Shown in pieces: positions 399 to 47,006 of a DNA stretch of 50,198 nt (its first letter is position 1; each line of letters begins with the position of its first letter). The position numbers were made by a program, and so were the translations under genes. The stretch is from NCBI GenBank assembly GCA_001825395.1, contig MHWN01000019.1, positions 1 to 50,198 on the forward strand, given 5' to 3'. Under the pieces are notes generated by a model. It did no database searches. It was not told the DNA's origin and worked only from the letters and a program-made list of their open reading frames with translations. This DNA comes from Candidatus Zambryskibacteria bacterium RIFCSPLOWO2_02_FULL_39_26. Lineage in GTDB: Bacteria; Patescibacteriota; Minisyncoccia; Phycocordibacterales; DATDWN01.

Positions 399-430
399 AA
401 AAAAAGGGTGGCGCAACTTGCACGCCACCC
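399..430 (-). terminator. intrinsic terminator of the 451-708 gene
   Basis: GGGTGGCG/CGCCACCC stem followed by T7 on the minus strand. Confidence 0.75.
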
Positions 431-450
431 CTTCACCAATCCCGCGCCGA

Positions 451-708
451 CTAGCGCGGGCGAACAATCTTCGTCCGATTCGTGTTGATGGGTCGGGTCA
501 TCCGATGCCACCAACCCGGAAACCAAGCTAGGAACATCCTGTCGGCTTCCAGAGACATCACGAAAATTGCGATGATGGATACGGCTCCGACCGCCATCCA
601 CGAGTTAGTCGGAATTACCGAGTCGTCCGGGACTTCGAGCCCGCCCACAGACGTGAGAGCGAGAACGAAAAACATGCCGAAGATCAAGCCTCTGATGCTG
701 ATTTGCAT
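451..708 (-). CDS. small orphan membrane protein (85 aa, 2 hydrophobic segments), SD-led cassette 1
   Basis: ORF with AAGGAG 6 nt upstream of ATG, own promoter and terminator. Confidence 0.7.
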   Translation of the reverse strand: MQISIRGLIFGMFFVLALTSVGGLEVPDDSVIPTNSWMAVGAVSIIAIFVMSLEADRMFLAWFPGWWHRMTRPINTNRTKIVRPR

Positions 709-731
709 CGTGGTCTCCTTTTCAACCCTAA

Positions 732-760
732 ATTATATACTACTTTGTATGTAAAGTCAA
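732..760 (-). promoter_or_regulatory. sigma70-type promoter TTGACT-17-TATAAT
   Basis: Near-consensus hexamers with 17-bp spacer. Confidence 0.75.
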
Positions 761-773
761 GTATTTTTCGAGT

Positions 774-807
774 AGCAAAATACCCCTATTTCTAGGGGTA
801 TTTTGCT
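774..807. terminator. bidirectional hairpin downstream of 16S
   Basis: AGCAAAATACCCCTA-tttc-TAGGGGTATTTTGCT perfect inverted repeat. Confidence 0.6.
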
Positions 808-816
808 TATATCATC

Positions 817-836
817 CTTTATTTTGTTCCGTTCAA
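817..836. other. 3' arm of pre-16S processing stem (pairs with 6430-6449)
   Basis: CTTTATTTTGTTCCGTTCAA is the exact reverse complement of 6430-6449. Confidence 0.8.
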
Positions 837-996
837 TCCAGTCTTTCCCGGTGTCATGCCGATTTAATGACTACGGCAATCGTCAATTATGTGCTCAATT
901 GAAGCACACAATATCGACTCACATTCTTCTGTCAAAGACAGAAAAGGTTTCAAATTGAATTATTCCACGACCAGCTTCCGCTAGCCGTGCCTTGTT

Positions 997-1776
997 CAGG
1001 CACTTCTACATGTCGCCATGTAGCTTGGACTATATCATCATCCGTTGAAAGAAAATTTCTGCTTTTATTGGATGCCATGATCCTATTATTCTAGCAAATT
1101 CTTTGTGGCTCCTTCGACTAACAAAGAATCTCCAATAATACGGATCTACCCTTTTACTTGGATTGTGGATTTTTCCACATCCTATTCCAAGACCAATAAG
1201 AATACTTTTTAAGGTTTCCATTTTTTCGAAGTCTTTTTGAACTAACTGAATGTAGAATTCGTCACGAGTTCGTGGAATTCCACCCTCGGCATCAAAAAAT
1301 CCTCGAATATAAGCAATTTTCTCTCCTTCTGTCATTAGTGTGATCGGATCAAAAGAGAAATGTAGATCTTTACATACTGTTTCCAGTATATAATAATCAC
1401 GATCTTTCCCTTCTTTATAGATCCATGCATTCACACCAACCGACATCAATAAATCTTTCAACATATCGAGCCATTCCGGATATTTCTGTCCAAAACGGAT
1501 TCTTTTTTTCTTATTAAGAGAGGCGTCATGCATAGCTCCTTGAAGATACGCATATATTTCTCTCTTACTCAATACTCCAGATTTAAACGGAGTTCGGCGT
1601 GTAGTCTCTGAGGGGTTACTCTTTATTAAAAGAGAACTTCCCTGCTGATTGTCTGCACTTAAAGCATTTTCACTCATTTGGTAATTATACCAAGTGAGTA
1701 GCCTAAGATACACAGAGTTTCCAGCATACAGCCAATTTTTTCACAAAGAATTACTTCTTTGGGTCGCAACAAGTTT
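997..1776 (-). mobile_element. group I intron after 16S U1498
   Basis: AAGTCGT|AACAAGG split, terminal G, guide CTTGTT-GCGAC pairs with both exons, AATCAGCAGG and CAGAGACTAC core motifs. Confidence 0.92.
1030..1677 (-). CDS. LAGLIDADG homing endonuclease (S1498 intron), probably leaderless
   Basis: YLQGAMHDAS and YIRGFFDAEG motifs; TGnTATAAT 6 nt before ATG at 1677 (ORF track extends to 1713). Confidence 0.88.
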   Translation of the reverse strand: MSENALSADNQQGSSLLIKSNPSETTRRTPFKSGVLSKREIYAYLQGAMHDASLNKKKRIRFGQKYPEWLDMLKDLLMSVGVNAWIYKEGKDRDYYILETVCKDLHFSFDPITLMTEGEKIAYIRGFFDAEGGIPRTRDEFYIQLVQKDFEKMETLKSILIGLGIGCGKIHNPSKRVDPYYWRFFVSRRSHKEFARIIGSWHPIKAEIFFQRMMI

Positions 1777-2088
1777 ACGACTTACTCCCTGTTACCGAAT
1801 TTACCGTGGTCTAGCATACGCTAGCCTTCGGGTATTCCCGGTTCCCTTGAGTTGACGGGCGGTGAGTACAAGACTTGAGAACGTATTCACCGCGGTATAG
1901 CTGACCCGCGATTACTAGCAATTCCAACTTCATGGGGTCGAGTTTCAGCCCCCAATCTGAACTGGGGCGACTTTTATTAAGATTGGCTCAGGGTTACCCC
2001 GTCGCAACTCGTTGTAGTCGCCATTGTATTATGTGTGTAGCCCAAGGTATCAAAGGGACATGCTGACCTGGCGTCATCCTCGCCTTCC

Positions 2089-2237
2089 TCCCAGCTTTTT
2101 GCTAGCAAGCAAAAAGTAGTTTGATAAGTTAAAAAAGTTTAAGAAGTTTTATAAGTTTTTGAATTCTAACTTATTCAACTTTTCTGACTTATTAACTTAT
2201 ACAACTTGCTTTTTGAGCTTACGCTCAAAAAGCTGGG
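2089..2237 (-). repeat. ~150-nt hairpin expansion in 16S helix 40 region
   Basis: CCCAGCTTTTTG...CAAAAAGCTGGG arms enclosing AAGTT/AACTT units in place of a short loop. Confidence 0.8.
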
Positions 2238-2681
2238 CAGTCTCGCCTGATACGTATAACAGACAACGAGGGTTGCGTTCGTTACCCCACTTAAGGGAAC
2301 AATTCAAATCACGAACTGACGACGGCCATGCATCACCTGTCCAACTGTCCTTGTGAGACGGCACACGTTTCTGCGTGCCTTCAGTTGGATTTCTAACCTT
2401 GGTAAGGTTCTTCGTTTATCATCGAATTAAACCACATAATCCACTGCTTGTGCAAGTCCCCGTCTATTCCTTTGAGTTTTAACCTTGCGGTCGTACTACC
2501 CAGGCGCCGAGCTTAACGCGTTAGCTTCGTCTCTCAGAGGGTCGATACTCCGAAAAACCAGCTCGGAAAGTTTAGGGCGTGGACTACTGGGGTATCTACA
2601 TACGTGTTACTTCTTTCGAAGACCACTGTACCCAGTATTACAGATGGATCTCTATGTCGCCATAGAGGTCGGACTATATCA

Positions 2682-3404
2682 TTATCTTAATGTAAACTGT
2701 CGCAACGAATATGTTTCTTTTGGATTATGGTAGGAATCTATCATTTTTTCCAGAAGTTTTTGTTTTTCAATGTTCGGCCAGAATCGTGATGTGTGCGTAA
2801 TATGCACACCATCAATAAATCCGACTTTTTGATAAAACTTTTTCATATTTTCTTTGTCTCTTATTTTTACTTTACCATCCCCTGCATCACAGGCTGTAAT
2901 ACCTAGTGATTGGAGGAGAGTGATATATTCTTTTCTGAGCTTTGGATGAGCACAAGCGAGATAGACTCCACGAATCAGCCATTTAGCTTCATCTTTTTTA
3001 GTCTTTCTCCGTGCTACATACAAACTCACTCCACCATCACAACTAAATGCTGATTGCAAGAATTCTTTTACGACGTTATGTCGAATAAGTTCTTCAATTG
3101 GTAACTTAGTTTTAGGAAGCTCGCCATTTTTATACCGAAGTGTTCGGAATGTTCCAAACTTTTCAGTAAATAATTGACCTGCTTCTTTTGAATCAACGAT
3201 CGCTCGATGGAGTCCGTCAGAAGTCATGTCCAAACGGACACGATTTTCTGGTAATGCAAATTCTTGCATTATAGACTCTTTGAAAATCGAAACAAGTCGC
3301 TGTGATTTATTGGAGAAGTAGAATCGCCAGCTGTTTCTGCCTTTCGGCGACAAACAACCGTCGGTAAAAATAAGTCCAAGTAATGTTGCAGTAGTTTTGT
3401 TCAT
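2682..3404 (-). CDS. double-motif LAGLIDADG homing endonuclease (S788 intron)
   Basis: LLGLIFTDGCL and FLQSAFSCDGGV motifs, located in intron. Confidence 0.85.
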   Translation of the reverse strand: MNKTTATLLGLIFTDGCLSPKGRNSWRFYFSNKSQRLVSIFKESIMQEFALPENRVRLDMTSDGLHRAIVDSKEAGQLFTEKFGTFRTLRYKNGELPKTKLPIEELIRHNVVKEFLQSAFSCDGGVSLYVARRKTKKDEAKWLIRGVYLACAHPKLRKEYITLLQSLGITACDAGDGKVKIRDKENMKKFYQKVGFIDGVHITHTSRFWPNIEKQKLLEKMIDSYHNPKETYSLRQFTLR

Positions 3405-3470
3405 TAAGATATTCGGCGTTTAGTCTCTGAGGGGTCAATCAAGCACTAATTTTTGGAGTCAAGATAATAC

Positions 3471-3499
3471 TTGACAATAATAGTAGTCTATGTTATTCT
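3471..3499 (+). promoter_or_regulatory. promoter TTGACA-17-TGnTATTCT antisense to the 16S transcript
   Basis: Consensus -35, 17-bp spacer, extended -10. Confidence 0.7.
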
Positions 3500-3516
3500 G
3501 TTAGTCGGAGGTGACC

Positions 3517-3636
3517 ATGACAGACACAAAGAATTTTGCCGAGTCCTTGGAAGGAAAGGGTCTCACACCGCAAGAGAAAGCTGTCCTGATGAAACAGGCT
3601 GGACTTCCCTACGATGAGAATTCTCCCAAAAGGTAG
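3517..3636 (+). CDS. 39-aa orphan peptide MTDTKNFAESLEGKGLTPQEKAVLMKQAGLPYDENSPKR, SD-led cassette 2, antisense within S788 intron
   Basis: GGAGGTGA at 3507-3514, ATG 3517, TAG 3634-3636; below ORF-track cutoff and translated by hand. Confidence 0.65.
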   Translation: MTDTKNFAESLEGKGLTPQEKAVLMKQAGLPYDENSPKR

Positions 3637-3705
3637 CCTGGCGGATGCTTTGGAGCGACGTATCGCGCGACTCGCGATTATGAAGCTTTAGGCCAGGCGG
3701 TTCTC

Positions 3706-3745
3706 GAGAGGTTGTGTCGTTCCGACACAACCTCTTATTCTTTTT
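3706..3745 (+). terminator. intrinsic terminator of the intron-embedded cassette
   Basis: AGAGGTTGTGTCG-ttc-CGACACAACCTCT followed by TATTCTTTTT. Confidence 0.7.
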
Positions 3746-4176
3746 CCAAAAATTAGTGCTTGATGACTTCCCTGCTGATTGCCTGCACTCAAAACATTTT
3801 CACTTACTTAATAATTATACTAAATAAGTAGTCTGAGATACACAGGTATTCCAGCATACAGCCAAATTCTCATTCCGACGTCACCGTCGGAAGGGACCAG
3901 ATCGATCCCATTCGCTACCCACGCTTTCGTGTTTCAGTGTCAGGAGTGGCCCAATGAACTGCCTTCGCTTTTGGTGTTCCCCATGATATCAACGGATTTC
4001 ACCCCTACTCCATGAGTTCCATTCATCCCTGCCATCCTCTAGCTGTGCCGTTTCAATCGCACTTCCGAGGTTAAGCCTCGGGTTTTAACAATTGACTAAC
4101 ACTGCCACCTACACACCCTTTACGCCCAATGATTCCGGATAACGCTCGGGGCACTCGTATTACCGCTGCTGCTGGC

Positions 4177-5117
4177 CAATTTATTCTCATATCACTACGA
4201 GGATTGGACTATATCATCATCCATTATTTATTTTAAAAACAAATAATGGAGTTCGGCGTCTGATAGAAAATTTAAAAATCTCTCTATCTCACTGTTTTGG
4301 AAGTTTTTTAGACTTTCTCAAGATCAGTCTCTGAGGGGTCAAGTATAATTTGGGGTAGTTTGTAATCAAAACAGGATAAAATGTATGGCTGTATGGTGGA
4401 AAGAAAAATATCTCTTCCATCTTTGCCAACATATAGTTTTATATATTTCTTGCCTCTGCAAGATGGTGTTTGTATAGAAGTTTTTATTTTAAACTTTTCA
4501 TACAATACTTCTTGCAAAAGTCTTACATCTGATTGGCTGAATGAATCAGTACTAAAGGAAAACGAGTAATGTGATTTGACTCGATAATCCAATGTTCCAT
4601 CATCCATAAACCAAACTGCAAGACTAAGAGAAGAAACTGGTAACTTTTTAATAGTAGCTGGAACTGATTTTGACCCTGATCCATAGAACAAATTTCTAAA
4701 GAAATCTAATTCAACAAGAGATCTCGTGCTGAAATACCATTGCCCATTATCTTTTCTTTGTTTAGGAGGAGTTTTGACTAGATTTTGAAACTCATTATAG
4801 AGCCAGAAAACGTAATCTTTTTTGCGTTCAGACTGTTTTATTTGTAATCTGCTCGCCTTGAAACCATCATGTTCCAAGTATCCATCTCCCAACAAAGTTC
4901 CTACTACTATTTCTTTTTGTCGTTCTGTTAAACTCACTACTTAATTATACCGACTTTCCTGCTGATTGTCTGTCAAGAATCTCTTATGAGACGCAGCTCT
5001 TAACAGATTTCCAGCATATAAGCCGAATTTGCTTAGAACCTTACGATTCTAAGTCGCGCACAGTAATTACGAATTTTTAATGCTACTAAATTGGAAGTGG
5101 AGCTTAATCCACATTTC
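4177..5117 (-). mobile_element. group I intron after 16S U516
   Basis: CTCGT|GCCAGCAGC split, terminal G, core motifs. Confidence 0.92.
4308..4937 (-). CDS. LAGLIDADG_2-type homing endonuclease (S516 intron)
   Basis: VVGTLLGDG and LAVWFMDDG motifs; TATAAT 6 nt before GTG start. Confidence 0.9.
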   Translation of the reverse strand: MSLTERQKEIVVGTLLGDGYLEHDGFKASRLQIKQSERKKDYVFWLYNEFQNLVKTPPKQRKDNGQWYFSTRSLVELDFFRNLFYGSGSKSVPATIKKLPVSSLSLAVWFMDDGTLDYRVKSHYSFSFSTDSFSQSDVRLLQEVLYEKFKIKTSIQTPSCRGKKYIKLYVGKDGRDIFLSTIQPYILSCFDYKLPQIILDPSETDLEKV

Positions 5118-5285
5118 ACGAGTTTAGCAACCCCTTATTCGTGAGGTACTATCAATAAACTTTCTCCCTCATAAAAGATGTTTACGACCCAGAGGGTCTT
5201 CATCCATCACGCGGTGTCGCTCCATCAGACTTTCGTCCATTGTGGAAGATTCTCGACTGCGGCCACCCGTAGGTGTATGGTCCGT

Positions 5286-6019
5286 CATAGTGTTTTCCCC
5301 GATCACTCGGGGTATCAGACTATACCTTCATCCTCGACTAAACTTGTAAATTTAGAGAGGAGCCAACATGTTAGCTTGTACATAGGTCTTCTAACCGGTA
5401 CAAACTCTCTCGCGTCAATTTATAAAATTGTACGAGAAGTCGTTACGGGGTCAAATGATAAAAATTTTCTTTTTCCGCCAGTTTTCGAATTTAGAGATCG
5501 TATTTCTTCAATCTTTTTAAGGATTGAGGAATAATTTTCGTCTGAAATTCGATTTGTCCGGAGGTTATCGCCAAATTGAGATAATATCTCAAGAGCGATA
5601 CTTGCTTGTTTCTTTTTCAAAATAAGATGCGGAAGCATTTTATTGAGAATGCGGCGTACGTCTTTGCGGTCTACAATTACTAACTCCGCTTGATCGTGCG
5701 CCACAGAAACCCGCACTTTTCCCGCATTAAGATATTTTTGCATTTTCTCTAACATATCGATATGTCGAATATGTTGAGTGAAATTAATCCGAATGCGAGG
5801 ACGATATAAACGCTGGTATTGTGGAGACTGTTTCGTCAGTATTGCTACCAAAGAACCGTCTCCATCAAAGAAACCTGCGATATACGCGTCAGAAAACTTT
5901 TTTTCATCGACTTCCCACGGTATTGCCTTCATATACATGTATTATATCATGTCCTCTGAAGGTTCCACCGTTATGAGTTGGATTTTACTTGAGAATCACT
6001 TCTCAAGGAGACAAATTTT
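5286..6019 (-). mobile_element. group I intron after 16S position ~328
   Basis: CTGAGAT|ACGGACC split with exon-terminal U and intron-terminal G. Confidence 0.88.
5420..5938 (-). CDS. single-motif LAGLIDADG homing endonuclease (S328 intron)
   Basis: YIAGFFDGDGS motif and PHLILKKKQA segment typical of the I-CreI-like family. Confidence 0.9.
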   Translation of the reverse strand: MYMKAIPWEVDEKKFSDAYIAGFFDGDGSLVAILTKQSPQYQRLYRPRIRINFTQHIRHIDMLEKMQKYLNAGKVRVSVAHDQAELVIVDRKDVRRILNKMLPHLILKKKQASIALEILSQFGDNLRTNRISDENYSSILKKIEEIRSLNSKTGGKRKFLSFDPVTTSRTIL

Positions 6020-6460
6020 ATCTCAGTACCATCGGTGGGGGCCAAGCTCTCACTCCCCCTAAGCGTCATTGCCTTGGTAGGCCATTACCCTACCAACTAG
6101 CTGATACTCCGCAGGCCATTCTTTTAGCGCAACTGTAATAAAACAGCGCTTTACTCCGAAGAGACTATCAAGTATTACCCAATCTTTCGACTAGTTATTC
6201 CTGACTAAAAGGGATGTGCCCACGTGTTACTACCTCGTTCGCCACTGCTCTTGCGAGCCGTTTGACTTGCATGCCTTATCCACACCGCCAGCGTTCATCC
6301 TGAGCTAGGATCAAACTCTTAAAATAATTTCTGTGAAATTATTTTATCCGACCCATGAGACGAAGTCTCGTCTGGGTTTAGGATAAGCCCTAAACGCTTT
6401 CGCGTCGGGCAAAATTTGATTCACAAATTTTGAACGGAACAAAATAAAGAAGAATATAAT

Positions 6461-6549
6461 TTAGTCTATAAAGTCAAGGGTCTTAAAGTCTGTAAAGTAA
6501 ATTTGAATTCACTTTATGGACTTTATGGACTTTATGGACTTTCTACTTA
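6461..6549. repeat. palindrome family A (TAAAGTC/GACTTTA units), 16S leader copy 1
   Basis: Near-identical to 6642-6732; related to 20353-20430, 28167-28258, 32886-32975. Confidence 0.85.
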
Positions 6550-6641
6550 TCTTGGGCTGTTGTGATGTTTTTTATGATTGATTTTTATTGATATTGAAAA
6601 TCGTTGCTTAGATTTTCATATCCGAAAGCATTTATAGGAAA

Positions 6642-7896: not shown

Positions 7897-7900
7897 GTTC

Positions 7901-7997
7901 GTTTTAATTTTAAATTCTAAATTTTAAGTTTTAAATGAATGTTTTAATTTTAAAATTTGAATTTGATTTAAAATTTATAAATTAAAATTTAAAATTT
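7901..7997. repeat. AT-rich imperfect palindrome (family B-like) between secD and secF
   Basis: TTTTAAATT/AATTTAAAA units; similar tract at 9397-9505. Confidence 0.55.
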
Positions 7998-8001
7998 TGT
8001 A

Positions 8002-9354: not shown

Positions 9355-9515
9355 ACCCGAACTATTATAGGGATTCAGGATAATAAATCAAGAGTAAATT
9401 TTCACTTTTTAATTTAGAATTTTTAATGAATTTTCAATGATTAATTTTAAATTTTAAAATTAGAAATTAAGTAAAAATTAAAAAGTATAAAATTAAAAAT
9501 TATTTAATATTTTTT

Positions 9516-11341: not shown

Positions 11342-11792
11342 ATTGAAATGTAACCATAACACCTTTGTCCTTCAAAGAAGAAATGGTTAAAATTATTTTT
11401 TGATTAGTTTTTCCCGCCAAAAAAACGGCGATGGTCTGCGACACTGTCTTTTTTGAAATGTTCCAGTCGTTGGTTTTTAGGACATTCTCGTACATAACTG
11501 CCAAATCTTTCAAAGACTTGCTTGAAACATAAGATACTGTGGTTTTTGTTTTATCTCCCGGAACAGCCACTGTTCCAGAATAATTTAGACTAGCATTCTC
11601 CAAAATGAGCTCAACCGGAAAATCAGGCGGCAAATCCTTGTACAAAGAAATCCTGGTTCCGACAGGATAATTGCCGGGGATAATCACTTCCGGCCCATTT
11701 ATAAACGAATCGTAATTAAAGTAGGCAAAAGTTGAAACTATTATTATAAAAATGACAAGATAGACTAACTTGGATTTGTATAAGTTACTCAT
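11331..11792 (-). CDS. membrane-anchored hypothetical protein
   Basis: N-terminal TM, LPPDFP motif; TATAAT 6 nt before ATG 11792. Confidence 0.75.
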   Translation of the reverse strand: MSNLYKSKLVYLVIFIIIVSTFAYFNYDSFINGPEVIIPGNYPVGTRISLYKDLPPDFPVELILENASLNYSGTVAVPGDKTKTTVSYVSSKSLKDLAVMYENVLKTNDWNISKKTVSQTIAVFLAGKTNQKIILTISSLKDKGVMVTFQYEK

Positions 11793-11898
11793 GGGTTTAT
11801 TATACAACCATCATATAGCATTTTCAATACTTTAAGTAAAATCTGACAAAAGAAACGCCCAGCACTTTCCGAAGAAAATGCTGGACGGTATGAGAGAA

Positions 11899-12897
11899 CT
11901 ACTTGTGGGAGTAAGTCATGACTTCGTCCACAATTCCCCTGGAAGTCTGACGGCACCCAATGGTCACCATCTGTTTCCCAGAGAATCTGGACCTAGTCAA
12001 TATCCCACTACTTGCATCACTTAGAGGCCACGTCGTTCCAGGCTTCCAAGTGAGCATGAGTTTGATGTTTTCCACCTCGTTAGCCGAATACTCCCAAGGC
12101 GGAGTGGCTCGGAGGTTCAGAAGACCCGGGGCGTTATGGTGAGACAACCCGAATACATGGCCAAACTCATGACCAACAACAAGATCATAAAGCTGGCTAC
12201 GGGAAAAGGCAATGCCTCCACCCACGATCCGATAGTTGATGATGTCCCAAGTCACAATCGCGTCGAAACCTTTATCTTCGATGGTCTGATCTATCCGCAG
12301 TGGAAAGACAGCCGTGCCGGGAACAGCCGAGGTACTGGCATAAACCTGAAAGCCGATTTGGTTTTGGAGCTTTTGAGCCCAAGTGTATATGAGAGAAGCA
12401 CTGTTGGGCCACTCTTCAATAAACCTCTGCTCGAGCACAATTGAAACCGGGCCATCAAGACGATATAGCGGGTGAAGGCCTGGATTGAAATCGGCTCCGA
12501 TATCTCCAAAAACCGCCTGCCTGACTGTCAGCTCACTATTGCCTGCCGCATGCAGACAATAGATGAGCAAATTGGTCAGTGCAGTTCTTTGCGCCGTCAC
12601 GAAAGGCAAGCAACTCTCGGCAGTTACGGTGATTTGGAAACCACCGGTTGTCGAGCGAATGATCACCTTGCCAGATTCGTCAGTTTGAAACTGACCGAAA
12701 CTGGTTGAGAGCGTTGCTCCGGAAATCGGCTGATTCGACCCGCGTTCCAGCACCCAAAAGGTGTATTCCGCCTCAGCCGGCGGAGTAACTGTTGGAGTTG
12801 GAAGTGGAGAAGGGCTGGTCTGGGTCTCATCACAGGCGGACGAGAAAAAAGCCATGGCCAGAACGACCATGACTGCGAAAAACTTACTGCGCGTCAT
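11899..12897 (-). CDS. lipoprotein with metzincin Zn-protease motif, SD-led cassette 3
   Basis: Lipobox-like SSAC, HEFGHVFGLSH (HExxHxxGxxH), AAGGAGG SD, terminator hairpin ~11845-11886. Confidence 0.85.
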   Translation of the reverse strand: MTRSKFFAVMVVLAMAFFSSACDETQTSPSPLPTPTVTPPAEAEYTFWVLERGSNQPISGATLSTSFGQFQTDESGKVIIRSTTGGFQITVTAESCLPFVTAQRTALTNLLIYCLHAAGNSELTVRQAVFGDIGADFNPGLHPLYRLDGPVSIVLEQRFIEEWPNSASLIYTWAQKLQNQIGFQVYASTSAVPGTAVFPLRIDQTIEDKGFDAIVTWDIINYRIVGGGIAFSRSQLYDLVVGHEFGHVFGLSHHNAPGLLNLRATPPWEYSANEVENIKLMLTWKPGTTWPLSDASSGILTRSRFSGKQMVTIGCRQTSRGIVDEVMTYSHK

Positions 12898-13055
12898 GGT
12901 TGGCCTCCTTTTTTGGCCTTATCGAAAATGACAAAGTGCAACAAAAAGCGTTTGTACAGTTCTAAACGCATTATACACCAAAAAGTCAAGATTGGGGAAA
13001 AGTCAAGTTCAAACAGTGGATATCCTGTGCACATCCCCATACCCTATTTTCTAGA

Positions 13056-13110: not shown

Positions 13111-13797
13111 TTATTTATTAAAGGTCACCCAATCAAAAATCTCTTTATCGAAAATTTCTTTGTCTAAAAAATATTGTGGAAAAACCTTTAGATTTAAAAT
13201 CCTGCCTCTTAATCTTTTGATTTTCCTAAAATCTAAATAACTGCTCCACTCATATTTATTTAAAAATTCAATGCTTTTTTTAACATTTCGTATCTCCTTT
13301 TCTTTCCATAAAGGATCTATTAATTTTAAAGGGTTTAGATGTATATATGAAAAAATGTATTTTGATTGAACATCATTTTTTGTATGAACTGCTTTAAATG
13401 GACCTTCAAAAAGTTTTCCTGTTCTTTTATATTTTTTATTAAAGTACATTGAATATGATGTGCAAAGTTTTTGAACGAACACGCTGATTGAATTCGTCTC
13501 CTCTCCTAGGTCCCCTAGGCGACGCCTAGGGGAAATGTATAGATGAAAATGATTGGGCATTAAAACCCATGCTCCGATTGAAACAAGTTCTTCCCCTCTA
13601 TTGAAATCGAAGGCATCAATTTTTTTACCAACAATATCATCCCTAAAATTTATACTTTTTTCTGAATTGCACAAATATAATAATTTTGTAAATCTGTCTC
13701 TATCTAGATCATCGGTAAAAATATTTTGCTTGCTGTTCCCACGATTATAAATATGGTAATACTCCCCTTCAACTAAAGCTTCTTTTCTATATGTCAT
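13111..13797 (-). CDS. REP-associated tyrosine (Y1/HUH) transposase, RAYT-like
   Basis: YYHIYNRG, LMPNHFHL (HUH), YIHLNP (catalytic Tyr), YEWSSY motifs. Confidence 0.9.
   Translation of the reverse strand: MTYRKEALVEGEYYHIYNRGNSKQNIFTDDLDRDRFTKLLYLCNSEKSINFRDDIVGKKIDAFDFNRGEELVSIGAWVLMPNHFHLYISPRRRLGDLGEETNSISVFVQKLCTSYSMYFNKKYKRTGKLFEGPFKAVHTKNDVQSKYIFSYIHLNPLKLIDPLWKEKEIRNVKKSIEFLNKYEWSSYLDFRKIKRLRGRILNLKVFPQYFLDKEIFDKEIFDWVTFNK
13511..13533. repeat. REP palindrome in frame inside RAYT
   Basis: TCCCCTAGGCGACGCCTAGGGGA, encodes SPRRRLGD. Confidence 0.9.
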
Positions 13798-18959: not shown

Positions 18960-19069
18960 GCGGATAGTATAACGTATAAAGTATAAGGTATAAAGGTAAA
19001 AAATTGGAAAGCAGAAAGTAGTATTTGACAATGACAGTAAAAAGCATAGCCTGATTAAGAGAGGTGGTT

Positions 19070-19282
19070 ATGATGGCTGGTTATATCACCAGACTTTGGT
19101 ACAAAGACGGTACTCTTGATCGAGTTGAGGTACAGGTCGGTAGGGGGTACGAGAAATTCTGGAGCAATACCGTGAGATTCAGAAATACGGATCCACTGGC
19201 GGTCACAAGGGTGGGACATGGCAGTTATGTAGAGGTCCATCGTTTTTGGTTTTTTGGATCACTCATAACTGTCCTGAACTAG
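19070..19282 (+). CDS. 70-aa orphan protein, SD-led cassette 4
   Basis: TTGACA-16-TAGCCT (19025-19052), GAGGTG SD, terminator AAGGCGCGACA-tttc-TGTCGCGCCTT-TT (19305-19336). Confidence 0.65.
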   Translation: MMAGYITRLWYKDGTLDRVEVQVGRGYEKFWSNTVRFRNTDPLAVTRVGHGSYVEVHRFWFFGSLITVLN

Positions 19283-19354
19283 CTCTGAAAAAACCCAACA
19301 AACAAGGCGCGACATTTCTGTCGCGCCTTTTGATTTGTCTAAAATCGAATCACC

Positions 19355-29110: not shown

Positions 29111-29368
29111 ATCCTATTTTATCTAACAACCTGGGGATAAAAAAGCCTTTTGATACCGCCCCACTTAGCGATCTTATCCGGCCGACTAAATCACCAAGTA
29201 AGATTAGTCTACACATACATTATAATAGTGCTATAGCACTATTATAATGTATGTGTAAAATATGCATGTAAAAGAATTTCAAATAAATGCGAAAACCCGC
29301 TCAAGTTTTGCAAAGCAAAATTTGAGCGGGCAGACCGTCCTTGCAAACGATTGTCGCAAGACGATAGT

Positions 29369-29731
29369 TTAGAATGCCTTCCTGTACTTTCTCGAGGCAC
29401 GGAAACTGAAAAGCGACCAGAGTAAATCAATGAAACTTCCGAGTACCCCAATCAATATCAAAAACGGTATGACAACGAAAGTGATACTCAAAATCCAGTC
29501 CATGGGTGTTGCAAGATATGGCCAGACCACATCTTTCAGAAAGTGAACAAAGCGAGCAATGAGATGCTTCTGAATACCGACTGGATGATGCCAGTCTGCA
29601 TTTTGAAGCCACCAAAAACCGCAGTACAGAGAAATTACGAAAAAGGTAAAATCTCTTACAACCCTTCTTACTCTGTGGAAAGTCAACCAGCCAACTCCCA
29701 CAAGCTTGAGCTCCGGCTTCAAATCCGTCAT
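29369..29731 (-). CDS. orphan membrane protein (120 aa), SD-led cassette 5
   Basis: TTGACG-17-TAGTTT (29776-29748), GGAGGT SD, ATG 29731, terminator CCCGCTCAA...TTGAGCGGG-TTTT (29292-29330). Confidence 0.7.
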   Translation of the reverse strand: MTDLKPELKLVGVGWLTFHRVRRVVRDFTFFVISLYCGFWWLQNADWHHPVGIQKHLIARFVHFLKDVVWPYLATPMDWILSITFVVIPFLILIGVLGSFIDLLWSLFSFRASRKYRKAF

Positions 29732-30003
29732 GGAACCTCCAAATATCAAACTACCCCAAAAACCGATTTACGTCAATTGTATGTAATATCCAAATAGCTT
29801 GGAATCACCCAAACCCCTAGGAATACCTGTACCGAATAATAATTATGTCAATCAAAAGGCTCCCGAGTGGGAGCTTTTTGGAAACTTTCACAATTTGGAT
29901 GCAGTTCAAGAAGCAAGATTTTTTGGCGACCAAGCTGTAGAAAACTACTGCGCATAGAGCCAAAAAATTAAGGCGACAAAGAAATGCGCCAAATTTGGAA
30001 GTT

Positions 30004-31324: not shown

Positions 31325-31398
31325 TATAATCATCTTTTCAAAAAAAGCTATAGATTGACATATATATCAAATGTGATATTAATACAAATGGAGGCTCG

Positions 31399-31581
31399 AT
31401 GGAAAATGTTTTGAGGGTGTTGAGTGGAATCATGCTTGGAATTGGATGTCTACTGTTGGTCATCGACTTCATGGCTATATACGAGCTGAAAAAAGCATCG
31501 GCTATTCCACTCCAGACAATTAGTATGACTGCTCTTTGTTTTCTCGGGAGCTTGGCCGCTAGTAGTCTCTCGAAAAAATAG
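31399..31581 (+). CDS. 60-aa two-TM orphan protein, SD-led cassette 6
   Basis: TTGACA at 31355, GGAGG SD, hairpin ACGGCGTACTT-aaa-AAGTACGCCGT (31598-31622). Confidence 0.65.
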   Translation: MENVLRVLSGIMLGIGCLLLVIDFMAIYELKKASAIPLQTISMTALCFLGSLAASSLSKK

Positions 31582-31860
31582 ATCAGTCATCGTCCAAACG
31601 GCGTACTTAAAAAGTACGCCGTAAAATTTTATATATAATAGTTATTTATTATTTTAAATCTTTATTTTATATGACATTTTAAATCATACCATTTACTAGC
31701 GATCGCTGGTAAATAGTTTGATTTAGGTAAAGGTAAGTAATCTCTAATCAAAACTCCCTTAGGTTTAACCTTGGGGAAGTTTTATCTTTAATCCTGAATC
31801 TATTTTAATGAGATCTTCGTTCCCTGCCCCTCGCTTGGTAGCTCGGGACACCCGCTAAAA

Positions 31861-36400: not shown

Positions 36401-36421
36401 AGTGTTTTTACATTATCTCGT

Positions 36422-41201: not shown

Positions 41202-41270
41202 TCCGCACACTAACTTTAGCATCGCTTTACCGTGTTTTTTCAAAACACAATACCAAAGTTAGTGTGTGGA
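41202..41270. repeat. CCGCACACTAAC...GTTAGTGTGYGG palindrome (family C); second copy 42414-42548
   Basis: Shared arms at both loci. Confidence 0.7.
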
Positions 41271-42291: not shown

Positions 42292-42315
42292 ATATTTACC
42301 ACTTTAAGGGAGTAA

Positions 42316-42386
42316 TGTCCTTAATTGTTATTTAATATGTCCTATATAAATAATAAATGTCCTTTAGAACATTAAGCACGTCCATT
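42316..42386. promoter_or_regulatory. four phased YGTCCW repeats upstream of the HTH gene
   Basis: Copies at 42316, 42338, 42358, 42379. Confidence 0.5.
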
Positions 42387-42590
42387 ATACTCATTAAAGA
42401 CATTTAGGCAAGCCCGCACACTAACATTGCCATCATCCTGCTTTTCAAAAACGACACTAGTACCAACTTAGATATCTTTGCCATAATCTCGCTTTAAGCG
42501 ATGATTACTACAGAACATATTAGAGCAATGGCAATGTTAGTGTGCGGACGTGCCAGACAAGTAATGATTTATTTGCTAAAATACCTAGAT

Positions 42591-44807
42591 ATGGCCAAGA
42601 AGGATAAGAAAAGAAGAGGTGGAGAGGCAAATAGTGAATCTTCTTATGGGTATCTAAAAGATGAAACTTTGCAAGGCATAATTGCCATCCTATTTTTTGT
42701 ATTGAGTGTATTTTTTACACTATCCAGTTTTACCACCAAAGGGGGTAATAATTTGGCTGGCTTTGTCGGTGAGCAGTCTTATAAAATATTTCATGATATT
42801 CTTTTCGGAGTCGGATATTATTTGTTGCCTGTAATATTTTTAATGCTATGTATTTCCTTCTTCAAATCGTTGAAAAAGAAACTGGCCACGACCCATACTA
42901 TCGGCGGTATTTTATTTTTCATTTCCGGACTTGGACTTATCAATATAAGTTTACCTGACAGGGGCGGGTTTGTTGGGGGACTTATCTCCAGCCCCCTTGT
43001 AAGTTTATTTGATGTTTACGCCAGTGTTGTCATACTTTTAGCTCTTATGGTTATATCATGTCTGATCATATTTGACGCGCCACTTAAGCTTACATTCATT
43101 ACTTCATTATTTAAAAAAAGGGATATTCTCCCCGAAACGGAAGATTCTGGACCGGAGATAATTATCGCTAATTCGGGCGGTTTAAGCCAAGATGATTTAA
43201 AAAATTTAAGAAAAGACGGTCATGCGATTGAAAAAACTCTCGAAACAAAAAGAACTGGGGAAATATTACCAAATAATAAAAAGGAGGAATTTGGCGTAAA
43301 TCTTCTTTCTTTTAACGGAAAAGAATTTGTTCCGCCACCTCTTTCTCTTCTTCAAGAAGATCATGGCAAACCGGGAGTTGGAGATATAAAAGCTAATTCA
43401 AATATTATCAAAAGAACACTGGCGAACTTTGGCATTAATGTTGAAATGGATGAAATTTCCATTGGCCCATCAATAACCAGATACGCCCTGAAGCCGGCGG
43501 AGGGAGTAAAATTGTCCCGCATTGTCGGACTTCAAAATGATCTGTCTTTGGCTCTTGCCGCCCATCCAATACGAATAGAAGCTCCAATTCCCGGAAAATC
43601 TCTGGTCGGAATTGAAATACCGAATAGTATTAAAACAACCGTCGGACTTGGGACGCTATTGTCCTCAAACGAATTTCAAAATTCGGATAAACCGCTTTTG
43701 GTTTCTCTTGGAAAAGGAATCTCCGGAATGTCATATTTTGCCAATTTATCCAGAGCTCCACACTTTCTTATTGCCGGAGCAACCGGTGCCGGCAAATCGG
43801 TCTCTATACACGCCATCATTACCTCGCTCCTTTATAGAAATTCCCCTGATAATTTGAAATTCATAATGATAGATCCTAAGCGAGTGGAGTTGACCCTTTA
43901 TAACAAAATACCCCATTTACTGACTCCTGTTATTACCGACGCTAAAAAAACTATTTTGGCCCTGAAATGGGCGGCTAAAGAAATGGATAGGCGTTATGAC
44001 ATTCTTCAGGCCGAAAGTTTGCAAAATATTTCTTCTTACCATAAAAATGTGGTTGAGCCGGAACTAAAAAAGAAAAAAACAGTTAAGGCGTCAGCTACGA
44101 CAGACGACAAACAAATTGAGACCATGCCTTATATCGTCATCGTTATTGACGAATTGGCTGATATTATGTCAATGTATCCTCGCGAACTGGAATCGGCTAT
44201 TGTTCGCTTGGCCCAAATGTCTCGAGCAGTTGGAATCCATCTTATTCTTTCCACCCAAAGACCTTCGGTAAACATCATTACCGGACTTATCAAAGCCAAC
44301 ATTCCGACAAGAATCGCCTTGCAGGTGGCCTCCCAAGTAGACTCCCGAACTATTCTTGATATGGGCGGGGCGGAAAAACTTTTGGGAGCCGGGGATATGC
44401 TTTACCTTTCCGGAGAAATGTCTCAACCACAAAGAATCCAATCGGCATATATATCGGAAAATGAAGTCAAGGCAGTGGTGAAATATCTGGCCCAAAGTTA
44501 TGAAAGTGATGTGCCAAATGAAATAAACCTAACCGGTGAAAATCAGAAAAATAATATTTTTGAAGCAACACTTGAAGATGAGAAAATGGAAAACGATGAC
44601 GAACTTTATGAAGAAGCCAAGAAGACTGTCATGGAAGCCGGCAAGGCATCTACCTCTTATCTTCAGCGAAAACTGGGTATTGGTTACGCCCGGGCCGCCC
44701 GGCTTATTGATATGCTTGAAGAGCGCGGAGTGATTGGCCCAGGTTCTGGAGCCAAACCACGAGAAGTTATAGGAAACACGACATCAATTACGAATGAGAA
44801 CGAATGA
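42591..44807 (+). CDS. ftsK: DNA translocase FtsK/SpoIIIE
   Basis: 4TM region, GATGAGKS Walker A, IDELADIM, gamma domain LQRKLGIGYARAARLID; start after TGnTAAAAT. Confidence 0.97.
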   Translation: MAKKDKKRRGGEANSESSYGYLKDETLQGIIAILFFVLSVFFTLSSFTTKGGNNLAGFVGEQSYKIFHDILFGVGYYLLPVIFLMLCISFFKSLKKKLATTHTIGGILFFISGLGLINISLPDRGGFVGGLISSPLVSLFDVYASVVILLALMVISCLIIFDAPLKLTFITSLFKKRDILPETEDSGPEIIIANSGGLSQDDLKNLRKDGHAIEKTLETKRTGEILPNNKKEEFGVNLLSFNGKEFVPPPLSLLQEDHGKPGVGDIKANSNIIKRTLANFGINVEMDEISIGPSITRYALKPAEGVKLSRIVGLQNDLSLALAAHPIRIEAPIPGKSLVGIEIPNSIKTTVGLGTLLSSNEFQNSDKPLLVSLGKGISGMSYFANLSRAPHFLIAGATGAGKSVSIHAIITSLLYRNSPDNLKFIMIDPKRVELTLYNKIPHLLTPVITDAKKTILALKWAAKEMDRRYDILQAESLQNISSYHKNVVEPELKKKKTVKASATTDDKQIETMPYIVIVIDELADIMSMYPRELESAIVRLAQMSRAVGIHLILSTQRPSVNIITGLIKANIPTRIALQVASQVDSRTILDMGGAEKLLGAGDMLYLSGEMSQPQRIQSAYISENEVKAVVKYLAQSYESDVPNEINLTGENQKNNIFEATLEDEKMENDDELYEEAKKTVMEAGKASTSYLQRKLGIGYARAARLIDMLEERGVIGPGSGAKPREVIGNTTSITNENE

Positions 44808-44900
44808 CACGAATGGAATTTATTCATGTGCCCTATTCGCAAAGGTTTTTAACTATTCGTGTCATTCGCATGAATTCTGGTGGATTAGTGTCGCACTTAC

Positions 44901-45254
44901 ATGAATAGAAACGCCACATCCTTACTGCGAATTACCTTATTTTCTATCCTAGGTATGGTTATAGTGGGATATTCCATATTTCAGGCATGGAAGCTTATTT
45001 CTGGACCAATTATTGATATATACACACCCCAAAACGGCGCGACCTACAGCCAGACTCTCATAGAAATAGAGGGTCGGGCTCGAAATATTTCTTACTTAAA
45101 CTTAAACGATAGACCAATCTTTACAAACAAGAATGGTTATTTTAAAGAAAAATTGCTCCTGTCACCGGGGTATAATATAATCAAATTAGACGCAAAAGAT
45201 AAGTTCAAAAATTACACGAAAAAGAGATTGGAAATTATATTAAAAGAGTTTTAA
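44901..45254 (+). CDS. membrane-anchored Ig-like domain protein
   Basis: N-terminal TM, P.NG..., G.F.EKLLL.PGYN.I motif. Confidence 0.8.
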   Translation: MNRNATSLLRITLFSILGMVIVGYSIFQAWKLISGPIIDIYTPQNGATYSQTLIEIEGRARNISYLNLNDRPIFTNKNGYFKEKLLLSPGYNIIKLDAKDKFKNYTKKRLEIILKEF

Positions 45255-45270
45255 TAATTAAAATAATACT

Positions 45271-46341
45271 ATGAAGAAAAAAGTACAGAAAGAACCTAAA
45301 AACGAAATCGGGAAAGTTAACGTGGAAAATACTTTAAGAGAAATCCGAACGAAGTTTGGTGACGACGCGATTATGATGCTTGGTGACAAGCCACACGTGG
45401 ACGTTAACGCCATATCCACCGGCTCTATTGGTCTTGATGCGGCACTCGGTGTTGGAGGACTTCCGCGCGGCAGAATAATTGAAATCTTTGGACCGGAATC
45501 GTCGGGAAAGACAACATTGTCTTTACACGTCATCGCTGAAGCCCAGAAAAAAGGCGGGATTTGCGCATTTATTGATGCCGAACACTCCATGGATCCGGAA
45601 TACTCAAAACGCTTGGGTGTGAACATTGCCGAGCTTTTGATCTCCCAGCCGGACAATGGCGAACAGGCTCTGGAGATTGTGGATTCGCTTGTACGCTCCG
45701 GCAAAATTGATGTTATCGTCATTGACTCCGTAGCCGCTCTTACTCCAAAAGATGAAATTGAAGGCGATATGGGCGCACACCATGTCGGCAAGCAGGCCCG
45801 CCTTATGTCCCAAGCTCTTCGCAAACTAACCGCCATTGTGGCAAAGTCAAAGACAATTGTCATTTTTATAAACCAAATCCGAATGCAGATTGGTGTAATG
45901 TTTGGCAATCCTGAAACCACTCCTGGAGGAAAAGCGCTTAAGTTTTACACTTCTATTCGAATAGATATCCGCCGCATCGCCCAAATAAAAAAAGGTGAGG
46001 AAGTGATGGGTGGACGAATCAGAGTAAAAGTGGTCAAAAACAAAGTTGCCGCTCCTTTCAAACAAACCGAGTTTGATTTAATGTACAACGAAGGCATTTC
46101 TCGCGAGGGTGAACTTATCGCTCTTGGTGAAAAGATGGGAATTATAAAAAAATCCGGCACAAGTTATGCCTACGGCGAAGAAAAACTTGGTCGTGGATAT
46201 GATGCAACTCGCCAATTTCTCAAAGACAAAGCCAACAAAAAAATCGCTGACCATATTCTAAAAGAAATTCGCGCAGGTCTCGCTAAAAACGGCGGGTCAG
46301 TTGTGGCTGTAAATACTGGTGAATCAAGTTCGGAAGAATAA
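45271..46341 (+). CDS. recA: recombinase RecA
   Basis: [35 protein letters not shown] motifs. Confidence 0.99.
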
Positions 46342-46345
46342 ATCT

Positions 46346-46451
46346 TTTTCGTAATAAATTTTTCTAGTAACAGAATAATTTTCTGCTGAAAATTTTCTTT
46401 CTACTCATCTTTTCACAGATTCCGTAGATACTAGAAAAATTTATTACTCAA
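46346..46451. repeat. ~106-bp element with 19-bp inverted repeats (GTAATAAATTTTTCTAGTA), copy of 23085-23190
   Basis: Arms 46351-46369 and 46429-46447. Confidence 0.88.
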
Positions 46452-46523
46452 CGATTTTATAATACAGAAAACCGACTCAGCGAGACGGTTTGTCTGCTTG
46501 CCGGTATAACGCTGAACCTTTGA

Positions 46524-46739
46524 CTACCTACCGGTAGCTGTCTCCTCATGAGGCCTAAGGCAGGTATCGCAGTTCTTGCAACACCCAGATCCATCCCACT
46601 TGTGTTTCTCATCTTTGCATCTAGGCTTATCTTTTCGGTATAAACCATCGCCACAAAGGTGCCACCCTTTGGCTGGTTTTCTTCGGGCATTTCCAGATTT
46701 CAAGTCGATACGATTCCATTCAGCCATGGTCTTTCTCAT
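46524..46739 (-). CDS. 71-aa basic Cys/His-rich orphan protein, SD-led cassette 7
   Basis: TTGACA-16-TAGTAT (46788-46761), GGAGGG SD 8 nt before ATG, hairpin plus T4 at 46468-46491. Confidence 0.65.
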   Translation of the reverse strand: MRKTMAEWNRIDLKSGNARRKPAKGWHLCGDGLYRKDKPRCKDEKHKWDGSGCCKNCDTCLRPHEETATGR

Positions 46740-47006
46740 TTTATAAACCCTCCATAAAAAATACTACAGTTAAAAAATAACTTGTCAAACTGGCTTTTAG
46801 GCCTTAAATAAGCTATATTATCCCCAGTTACTTGTCCCGTTAGAAGCTTCAGTCAAAATCTCTCTCGGAAAAACAGTGAAATATTAAACACTCGGTGTTT
46901 AATATTAGTGTCTATTAAATAAAACTTTGATGCAGAAAACCCCGTACCAAGTAATCTTTGGTACGGGGTATACCCTGCAAGGGAGACCTTTGATAAACTG
47001 AAGGCC

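Follow-up and report, generated by a model that had tools for sequence, protein, structure and literature searches.

Introduction

In the textbook and comparative view, Shine-Dalgarno (SD) boxes exist owing to the CCUCC in the tail of 16S rRNA, the anti-SD. Here we analyse seven single-gene units (cassettes 1 to 7), each with an SD-type box before its open reading frame (ORF), that lie on contig MHWN01000019.1 of Candidatus Zambryskibacteria bacterium RIFCSPLOWO2_02_FULL_39_26 (assembly GCA_001825395.1). The whole contig, positions 1 to 50,198 and thus 50,198 nucleotides (nt), is called the window below. As in canonical SD-led genes the box stands about 4-9 nt before the start codon, but the complementary CCUCC is absent from the 16S rRNA tail. 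The window is contig C19 of the genome, which we refer to as G000 (611 kb in 28 contigs, GC content 0.392, completeness 92.6%); other G-numbers denote comparison genomes, and L-numbers compared loci.

Single-gene units of related outline have been described in other settings. Phage morons and other atypical acquired genes are self-contained units of promoter, ORF and terminator, deviating in composition, often orphans, and placed between conserved genes. The units of the window differ from them in that they do not lie in a prophage (none of the seven products matches PHROGs), in that slots and box are conserved across species, and in that the promoter DNA is compositionally native. Integron cassettes are likewise single-gene units, with attC sites, an array and an integrase. 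The likeness here extends to single-gene units, unrelated content and recurrent positions; however, the units have promoters of their own and neither attC-like ends nor an array, and no integrase-like gene was noticed, though no dedicated search was made.

Genomes that mix leaderless with SD-led genes, such as those of Mycobacterium and Deinococcus, reportedly form 'group C' of GeneMarkS-2. G000 resembles them in having two initiation modes, with a -10 box a few nt before the starts of first genes and an SD-type site at some others. It differs in that the canonical CCUCC tail present there is absent here, where SD-led genes form a small minority that is richer in GC and evolves fast.

Bacteroidia are reported to have SD-blind ribosomes, with rpsU as a rare SD-led gene (PMC7797042, PMC13000453). 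The bulk of genes is SD-free both there and here, with a few genes whose strong SD is conserved for a purpose, but in Bacteroidia the anti-SD is present and sequestered by bS21, bS18 and bS6, whereas in G000 the sequence is gone, bS21 was not found by our search and the SD-led set comprises dozens of accessory genes. Loss of the anti-SD itself has been reported from Bacteroidetes genera, Mycoplasma, Carsonella, Nanoarchaeia and Flavobacteriia, organisms that are generally without a recognisable SD (Amin et al., 2018, PMC6107228; PMC10783764), and the first of these reports that lineages losing the anti-SD lose the SD as well (PMC6107228). The window's genome shares with these taxa a tail without CCUCC and core genes without SD. 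The main texts of both sources make no mention of Parcubacteria, Patescibacteria or the candidate phyla radiation (CPR), although their supplementary taxon tables could include CPR. For Parcubacteria or CPR our literature search, to which supplementary taxon tables were external, found no paper that deals with SD, anti-SD or leaderless initiation; in PMC12641261 and PMC6851277 the relevant terms occur only in a legend or in reference lists.

Organisation of the seven units

The seven ORFs named in a preliminary description of this DNA are all present, with coordinates and strands as given there (Table 1), and most of the architecture it proposed holds. Six of the seven units have a promoter of the form TTGACN-16/17-TAnnn(T/A). 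The spacer is 17 nt in cassettes 1, 2 and 5, which read TTGAC(T/A/G)-17-TAnnnT, and 16 nt in cassettes 4, 6 and 7; as had been remarked before, the -10 of cassette 6 is weak and the spacing in cassette 3 is non-canonical (8 or 25 nt). A GGAGG-type box ends 3-9 nt before the ATG in every unit, and the ORFs, with GC contents of 0.43-0.55, are indeed GC-richer than the genome. The claim of a GC-rich terminator after each ORF stands only in part: strong hairpins follow cassettes 1, 3, 4, 5 and 6 (z -3.6 to -6.3, with none of 200 shuffles as stable), four of them with a U run on the 3' side and that of cassette 6 with an interrupted one, but the hairpin of cassette 7 is weak (10 of 200 shuffles as stable) and cassette 2 has none that convinces. 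A single ORF is accordingly enclosed by its own promoter and terminator, with canonical promoter spacing in 6/7 units, a strong hairpin in 5/7 and a weak one in 1/7.

The products are mutually unrelated, as had been proposed, and only chance matches of 11-14 nt connect the units; no shared ends or attC-like sites were found among the seven compared with 200-nt flanks. The further statement that no integrase is visible fits the annotation, where an IS200-like Y1 transposase is the one recombinase-like gene recognised in the window (integrases were given no dedicated search), but that gene adjoins cassette 3. None of the seven products has a match in PHROGs or NCBIfam, none rises above a Pfam cut-off, and cassettes 5 and 7 retrieved only their own clusters in a word-indexed search of 5.8 billion proteins.

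Cassette 2 is the weakest of the seven; it lies antisense within a 16S rRNA gene insertion (2599-3904, limits taken from joints with contigs of other runs), a placement that the preliminary description had left unmentioned. The product of cassette 3 is a lipoprotein metzincin with the motif HEFGHVFGLSH. Representatives matching it at E<=1e-3 number 101, and the lipobox cysteine and the HExxHxxGxxH residues (C22, H243, E244, H247, G250, H253) are invariant in 28 aligned relatives; its match to Pfam Peptidase_M10 stays below the cut-off (17.3 bits vs 24).

DNA runs that contain the window sequence are groundwater and soil metagenomes. Contigs assembled from other runs cover cassettes 1-4, and one from an independent run, spanning 254-975 around cassette 1, shows zero differences.

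The 16S rRNA tail lacks the anti-SD

Helix 45 of the 16S rRNA is intact (~990-967), and the tail that follows it (965-953) reads GAAUAAUUCAAUU where the bacterial model has GAUcACCUCCUUu; in this single 16S rRNA of G000, GAAUAAUUCAAUU takes the place of the expected anti-SD GAUCACCUCCUUU. The altered end, without CCUCC, is seen in the Rfam alignment, which puts window positions 1010-953 on model positions 1478-1533, and a separate pattern match falls at 957-975. The suspicion that this ribosome has no anti-SD is thereby confirmed.

The same tail follows helix 45 in 9 relatives of the genus, with one or two bases different in four; contig C2 of G019, which is identical to the window, was kept apart from this count. 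Across 12/12 other families of the order the tail has the form GGA(A/U/G)U..UUC.., again without CCUCC, and no CCUCC was found 3' of helix 45 in the 22 lineages examined. Loss of the anti-SD in at least 13 families must therefore be old. Elsewhere in the class the canonical tail exists: GGATCACCTCCTT was found in 75/301 genomes, against one match for the reversed control pattern, and in G792 it lies directly 3' of helix 45. Two matches to the canonical pattern came from the order itself, one without rRNA context and the other (G198) on a contig of 4 kb whose helix 45 is of the ordinary bacterial kind and which is most likely contamination.

Downstream of the tail lies a 16S trailer of about 200 nt, whose blocks are conserved in relatives and which forms a duplex of -80.9 kcal/mol with the 5' leader. 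We take this leader-trailer duplex to be, presumably, an RNase III-type processing stem; since the trailer pairs with the 5' leader, it would be such a stem and not a hidden portion of the mature tail.

Core genes are free of SD boxes, and SD-led ORFs exceed chance

The preliminary description had seen no SD before the core genes that it checked, which agrees with the genome-wide count: GGAG or GAGG at -18..-4 precedes 21/425 long ORFs (5%), about what we estimate as chance from base composition. The same crude pipeline gave 9/38 (24%) on an E. coli control stretch and thus detects SDs, if with low sensitivity. Within 20 nt of the starts of 422 long ORFs TATAAT shows a 16-fold enrichment, centred at about -12..-7, and a -10 box stands 4-9 nt before the start in 111/425 long ORFs. 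With a -10 box so near the start codon, the bulk of first genes look leaderless. The leaderless pattern that we used, a -10 ending 6-7 nt before the start, from which transcription would begin at the ATG itself, is that of the bulk genes; the cassettes have leaders instead.

We scanned the genome for the full pattern of a cassette without the terminator, namely TTGACN, 16-18 nt, TAnnn[T/A], 4-60 nt, an SD pentamer, 3-10 nt, ATG and an ORF of at least 30 amino acids (aa). It occurs 18 times in G000, six of these among the seven cassettes, compared with 0.5 ± 0.6 (maximum 2) in 20 Markov-1 simulated genomes. In a simpler test, GGAGG outside ORFs of at least 150 aa is followed by an ATG within 4-9 nt and an ORF of at least 30 aa in 29/206 cases (14%), against 1.5-3.9% for ten control pentamers of similar composition; the genome-wide spacing from GGAGG to ATG is 3-9 nt, with a mode of 4-7 nt. 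The class thus reaches beyond the window and counts about 18 full units genome-wide, with some 30-40 ORFs led by an SD.

A similar excess is found outside G000. At the loci of the genus GGAGG leads to an ATG in 8/32 cases (controls 0-6%), and in G040, from another family, in 8/59; nine of the ten controls give 0-5% there, and the remaining one, GGGAG, reaches 6.5% and can itself partly pair with an anti-SD. G792, which belongs to the same class and possesses an anti-SD, gives 15/76 (controls 3-8%). Its core genes are also SD-poor (11/146) in spite of the canonical tail, and the combination of an SD-poor core with a GGAGG excess suggests that the two-tier arrangement of SD-led and SD-poor genes is older, as it seems, than the loss of the anti-SD.

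Slots and boxes are conserved among relatives

Cassette 1 occupies the slot that separates the 16S terminator from the tRNA-Ile promoter, and this slot holds one unit of the same build in G000 and in 9/9 relatives: TTGAC(T/A), a -10 box, a leader with GGAG, ATG, an ORF and a GC-rich terminator. The ORFs (68-105 aa, GC 0.49-0.58, one or two hydrophobic helices) end just before the terminators in all nine. Their proteins have diverged almost past recognition, although L009, L010 and L014 are alike (E 2e-5 to 2e-3), as are L012 and L013 (2e-6).

At the other orthologous loci that were compared, occupancy varies. The slot after recA (cassette 7) contains at least one small SD-led ORF in 4/5 relatives, with unrelated products. 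On the 5S side (cassette 4) an SD-led ORF is present in G017, G005 and G013 and absent from G019. Here too nothing connects the products, which are a polysaccharide deacetylase lipoprotein, a membrane protein of 61 aa and a protein of 67 aa. The slot of cassette 5 is filled in 1/5 relatives and that of cassette 6 in 0/5, the orthologous intergenic gap being 116-482 nt.

Conservation also extends to a cluster of folA, a thyA-like gene and a HIT gene, which keeps the same neighbourhood in 11 species. The thyA-like genes of these species form a single clade (support 100/99, branch lengths 0.03-0.8) with a GC content at third codon positions (GC3) of 0.46-0.66 throughout. GGAG or GAGG at -18..-4 is kept in 10/10 leaders of the 16S slot, 10/11 of folA and 8/11 of the thyA-like gene, where the background is ~5%; the three remaining thyA-like leaders carry AAGGA. 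The spacer bases around the box vary from species to species. Because slots and GGAG box are conserved while the flanking leader bases have diverged, the box appears to be under selection inside a lineage without anti-SD.

One comparison genome stands apart from the relatives counted for cassette 1. The stretch G019:C2:1725-3707 is 100% identical to window positions 1-1983, and the remaining G019 genes are 67-71% identical. This contig is probably misbinned or common to more than one bin, and G019 is therefore no independent witness for cassette 1.

Composition and membership of the class

The preliminary description saw in the units a distinct gene class, and this part of it is borne out: they are SD-led and GC-richer in a genome with SD-free core genes and no CCUCC in its 16S rRNA. 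We compared codon and amino acid usage in a set of 20 SD-led genes, defined by at least 60 aa, an ATG start and a start within 10 codons of the first possible one. Median GC3 is 0.49 in this set and 0.36 in 143 leaderless genes (p 3e-7), and arginine is preferred over lysine, R/(R+K) being 0.45 and 0.32, respectively. In their promoters and spacers the units share the AT-richness of the host genome.

Class members are mostly small membrane, secreted or lipoproteins and very fast-evolving, together with a few enzymes (folA, thyA-like and, in relatives, HIT). Outside the window they include thyA, a NUDIX hydrolase and several orphans. The thyA of G000 (G000:C15:25376-26197; L080/L087) is SD-led, has a GC3 of 0.58 and lies between a HIT gene and a conserved neighbour, in another place and orientation than the genus copy; G000 has no thyA-like gene of the genus type between folA and HIT. 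Its own thyA shares 54% identity with a gene in a genome of another family but only 33-39% with those of the genus, relations by which it is a xenologue. Two genus members (G024, G002) have a leaderless thyA-like gene with a GC3 of 0.31-0.33, so that SD-led and leaderless states would be interchangeable over time.

The metzincin of cassette 3 is perhaps imported as well. The Atlas clusters nearest to it are mostly from Acidobacteriota, and among the matches listed is one to a metagenome-assembled genome of Acidobacteria at 39% over 57 residues. A contig scan found it at no fewer than two loci, with a genus homologue at 31% identity, the only one among the matches listed; a word-indexed search returned near-identical proteins only (3 matches). 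The single protein matched 1/200 other genomes of the order, and the family gave weak matches in 49/400 other genomes of the phylum. We conclude that turnover and import feed the class but leave the retention of the box unexplained.

Candidate readers of the box

Several candidates were considered as readers of the GGAGG box and rejected. For an alternative SD that would match the real tail, the complementary k-mers are not enriched before core genes. A separate RNA with an anti-SD was sought among 27 near-matches containing CCTCC in the genome, of which 6 are intergenic and none has a helix-45-like context. As an internal 16S site, the CUCCU that G000 has near the position-725 region varies between genomes (UUCCU in G017, CACCU in G034), and neither CCTCC nor CTCCT occurs anywhere in the intron-less 16S rRNA of G034. 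In 22 lineages the 45 nt past helix 45 have no advantage over random windows in pairing with AAGGAGGU (mean -4.8 vs -5.0 kcal/mol for random 45-nt windows, median percentile 0.58). Of the proteins, a CsrA-type regulator gave a sub-threshold match (20.7 bits vs a cut-off of 27), and a search for bS21 gave no match. Flanking bases of the boxes were compared between genomes without and with an anti-SD, where numbers were too small for any difference.

The box might also mark the start of transcription. A gap of 6-7 nt between -10 and GGAGG is found in 6/30 cases in G000 and 6/17 at genus loci, against 7/176 and 1/45 for GGAGG without an ORF, from which many units must have very short leaders. However, where the leader is long the box still stands at SD distance from the ATG, and what is constant is therefore the distance from box to ATG.

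The excised 16S insertion RNA of G000 carries a perfect UCACCUCC, antisense to the box GGAGGTGA of cassette 2 (minus strand, ~3511). It is not a general reader, because relatives without the insertion also have the SD-led class.

Interpretation

From the observed architecture, the excess over chance, the missing anti-SD, the conserved slots and boxes and the raised GC3, we consider it on balance probable that the units are the organism's own, separately transcribed and leadered minority gene class, with a box that is under selection and whose reader is not the canonical 16S tail. In such a scheme the bulk genes of the lineage, an order of Paceibacteria/Parcubacteria whose 16S tail has lost CCUCC, would be leaderless or otherwise SD-free, and purifying selection would keep the GGAGG box 4-9 nt before the ATG as a signal that marks the start site or controls translation on mRNAs of the cell itself. 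Its reader would be something other than the canonical 16S 3' tail, and part of the class would turn over by replacement or import at the same slots. A wider form of this proposal, that the whole order of Paceibacteria keeps a GGAGG start signal on GC-rich mRNAs and has it recognised by a protein or another RNA, an anti-SD-independent reading of SD beside leaderless initiation, we put forward tentatively and as the less probable of the two. None of the observations that the preliminary description had named as counting against a distinct class was made: SD motifs are not as frequent before core genes, no neutral decay of the SDs was seen, and no canonical 16S rRNA was found in the genome.

Several points weigh against a selected box with a reader of its own. 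No reader was found among the candidates examined, and to our knowledge every known role of GGAGG at this spacing needs CCUCC, so that a selected box without it lacks an established mechanism. The relatives are kin and not independent, by which 10/10 and 10/11 overstate the statistical weight, and we treat the retention counts as qualitative evidence of selection for this reason. ORF calls and starts rest on our own crude rules, which had about half sensitivity in the E. coli control. In lists drawn up by motif, some of the raised GC reflects how members are picked, since a frame more often stays open where GC is high; ORFs behind control motifs are GC-rich too. A search of sequence runs for the window returned DNA runs only and zero RNA runs. 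Lastly, several members look imported (the thyA of G000, perhaps the metzincin), and the products within one slot are often unrelated, which would fit replacement by transfer too.

These last points lead to an alternative that we judge unlikely but by no means negligible: the units could be moron-like genes imported from GC-richer, SD-using donors or from anti-SD-bearing relatives, in which case the box is a functionless donor relic and the class transient and decaying. Higher GC, GC3 and arginine usage would follow directly from such an origin, as would the orphan status of the products (cassettes 5 and 7 with only their own clusters, no PHROGs or NCBIfam match, none above a Pfam cut-off). 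The xenologous thyA with its closer match in another family, the Acidobacteriota-like metzincin, the IS200-like transposase beside cassette 3, the slots of cassettes 6 and 5 that are empty in all or all but one of five relatives, and the unrelated products within one slot point the same way, and the thyA-like genes of the genus, either SD-led and GC-rich or leaderless and AT-rich, look as amelioration would. Yet the box is kept in syntenic orthologues whose neighbouring leader bases have diverged, which is not how a donor relic decaying in its recipient behaves. GC3 is high across a clade with branches of up to 0.8 substitutions per site, along which synonymous sites should have reached the genomic bias; the promoters and spacers have the AT-rich composition of the host; with at least 13 families affected, the loss of the anti-SD is old; and the metzincin family has its weak matches across other genomes of the phylum. 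The suggestion of a mobile pool acquired from SD-using donors consequently fails as a general explanation, given slots and boxes conserved across species, but it suits the thyA of G000, the metzincin and the slot of cassette 6.

The remaining alternatives keep the box functional by conventional means or dispense with the class altogether. It is improbable that a cryptic or displaced anti-SD persists, in the form of a longer mature tail whose ACCUUUUCU, 17-25 nt after helix 45, pairs weakly with GGAGG through G-U wobbles. Pairing with the extended tail does average -7.8 kcal/mol for SD-led leaders, compared with -3.3 for leaderless and -4.2 for other genes, but such a gain is expected for any purine-rich leader with any pyrimidine-rich target. 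A hairpin after the tail has a pyrimidine-rich arm on its 5' side in G000 and 9 relatives (read by eye), and the G034 tail has CACCUCG ~28 nt after helix 45; the pyrimidine stretch is, however, not conserved in sequence, pairing with AAGGAGGU is no better than in random windows of the same loci across the 22 lineages, and the trailer, pairing with the 5' leader as a processing stem, is probably removed. A second, canonical 16S rRNA missing from the assemblies could translate the SD-led class, which would correspond to the second ribosome type suggested earlier. rRNA genes often stay unassembled or unbinned, the G000 assembly is in 28 contigs and incomplete, and 3/5 high-quality relatives gave zero 16S matches. 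We nevertheless regard it as very improbable, since G000 has a single locus, as has each of two relatives that are 100% complete (G034 in 5 contigs, G027 in 8), every lineage examined has the anti-SD-less gene, the sole canonical end in the order (G198, on a 4-kb contig) is most likely contamination and no CCTCC site in the genome has a helix-45-like context. Scarcely plausible, too, is the earlier idea of a class tuned for a different translation apparatus, with units expressed by the ribosomes of a host bacterium after DNA or RNA transfer from this putative episymbiont. The signals are canonical bacterial ones, the composition is GC-richer, and the class is similarly frequent with an anti-SD in the cell itself (G792, 15/76) and without (G000, 29/206). 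But we found no evidence for host expression and know of no such bacterium-to-bacterium transfer mechanism; the promoters are of the type of the cell's own leaderless genes, lipoproteins and membrane proteins suit its own envelope, and the units are scattered without borders or shared ends. The class moreover includes folA and thyA-like genes in conserved synteny, needed by the cell itself, and the leaderless AT-rich thyA-like gene of two genus members points to own use. That the units could be nothing more than frames left open by accident in GC-rich spacers next to rRNA genes is a possibility to which we give almost no credence. Small ORFs are readily over-called, and for cassette 2 alone (39 aa, antisense in a 16S insertion, without terminator) this explanation may hold; for the class as a whole it is contradicted by 18 full units against 0.5 expected, by an excess specific to SD pentamers, by the invariant lipobox cysteine and HExxHxxGxxH of the metzincin and by ORFs that end just before terminators in 9/9 relatives.

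If the boxes are indeed selected and read by another partner, this would be a second, anti-SD-independent way to read a Shine-Dalgarno box. More generally, a box retained in an anti-SD-less lineage calls for an unrecognised reader, for a second function of the box that is hidden in ordinary bacteria, or for gene flow into tiny genomes that is far more intense and structured than has been assumed. For the annotation of CPR genomes it suggests a rule by which most genes are given leaderless starts, while SD-led starts are assigned to the small GC-rich accessory genes that gene callers often miss. The class would also mark out fast-evolving envelope proteins that may mediate contact with the host.

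Other features of the window

Table 1. Positions of the seven cassettes and of other features of the window. Coordinates on the minus strand are given in descending order where they describe parts of a feature.
Feature	Position	Strand	Promoter (-35; -10)	Box	ORF	Hairpin	Product or remark
Cassette 1	399..760	minus	TTGACT 760-755; TATAAT 737-732	AAGGAG 720-715	708-451	~432-399, with U7, z -3.6	85 aa, two hydrophobic helices, ORF GC 0.55
Cassette 2	3471..3636	plus	TTGACA 3471-3476; TATTCT 3494-3499	GGAGGTGA 3507-3514	3517-3636	none convincing, z +0.3	39 aa
Cassette 3	11845..13006	minus	TTGACT 13006-13001 and 12989-12984; TATAAT 12975-12970	AAGGAGG 12910-12904	12897-11899	~11887-11856, z -5.5	332 aa, lipoprotein metzincin
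Cassette 4	19025..19335	plus	TTGACA 19025-19030; TAGCCT 19047-19052	GAGGTGG 19061-19067	19070-19282	19304-19329, with U4, z -5.7	70 aa, soluble; converges on 5S gene
Cassette 5	29290..29776	minus	TTGACG 29776-29771; TAGTTT 29753-29748	GGAGGT 29740-29735	29731-29369	~29331-29295, z -6.3	120 aa, membrane protein; upstream of 23S gene
Cassette 6	31355..31630	plus	TTGACA 31355-31360; TATTAA 31377-31382 (weak)	GGAGG 31390-31394	31399-31581	31598-31622, z -5.2	60 aa, membrane
Cassette 7	46465..46788	minus	TTGACA 46788-46783; TAGTAT 46766-46761	GGAGG 46753-46749 (GGAGGG)	46739-46524	~46505-46471, weak, z -2.0	71 aa, Cys-rich; downstream of recA
16S trailer	771..952	minus				16S terminator ~800-775	conserved blocks pair with 5' leader (~6327-6560); ends in the terminator
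16S rRNA gene	953..6326	minus					only 16S in assembly; interrupted by several insertions
IS200-like Y1 transposase gene	13111..13797	minus	leaderless-type start (TATAAT, 7 nt, ATG)				PF01797, E 4.7e-6
5S gene	19626-19521	minus					
23S gene	28691-20029	minus					with group I introns
ftsK	42501-44807	listed under minus					core gene
recA	45271-46341	listed under minus					core gene

The 16S rRNA gene has four insertions, at 2599-3904, 4176-5116, 5286-6020 and ~1006-1780, which are skipped by the contigs of other organisms. Two of them contain LAGLIDADG ORFs (1030-1713 and 2682-3404). Matches of the gene to group I introns are at or below the Rfam cut-off. The 16S leader holds a short tandem repeat, AAGTCCATA, in three copies.

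Cassette 3 heads a GC-richer stretch on the minus strand (9725-12897) that also contains an ORF of 158 aa whose start is of the leaderless type, and a 545-aa protein with an Ig-like domain (PF16158, E 7e-8). The transposase gene lies directly upstream of the cassette, and similar sequences are found on five G019 contigs. In G017 and G005 the core genes that flank this stretch here enclose different SD-led lipoproteins.

Repeats occur at several places. The tRNA-Ile gene is at 70-143, and its 3' half is repeated ~70 nt downstream of the gene (window 1-40 and 213-250; L007, L010, L012, L013). A hairpin element (..CTCCTTACAGGAG..) recurs beside tRNA genes or tRNA fragments in several relatives. 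The half-repeat and the hairpin element look like remnants of att sites or scars of a tRNA-associated intron or mobile element. Repeats of ~100 nt at ~7905-8000 and 9395-9510 match both strands, being palindromic and similar to miniature inverted-repeat transposable elements, and have tens of copies in G019 and G005. Another repeat, of ~115 nt at ~46340-46460, lies between recA and cassette 7 and is present in at least 6 copies in G005.

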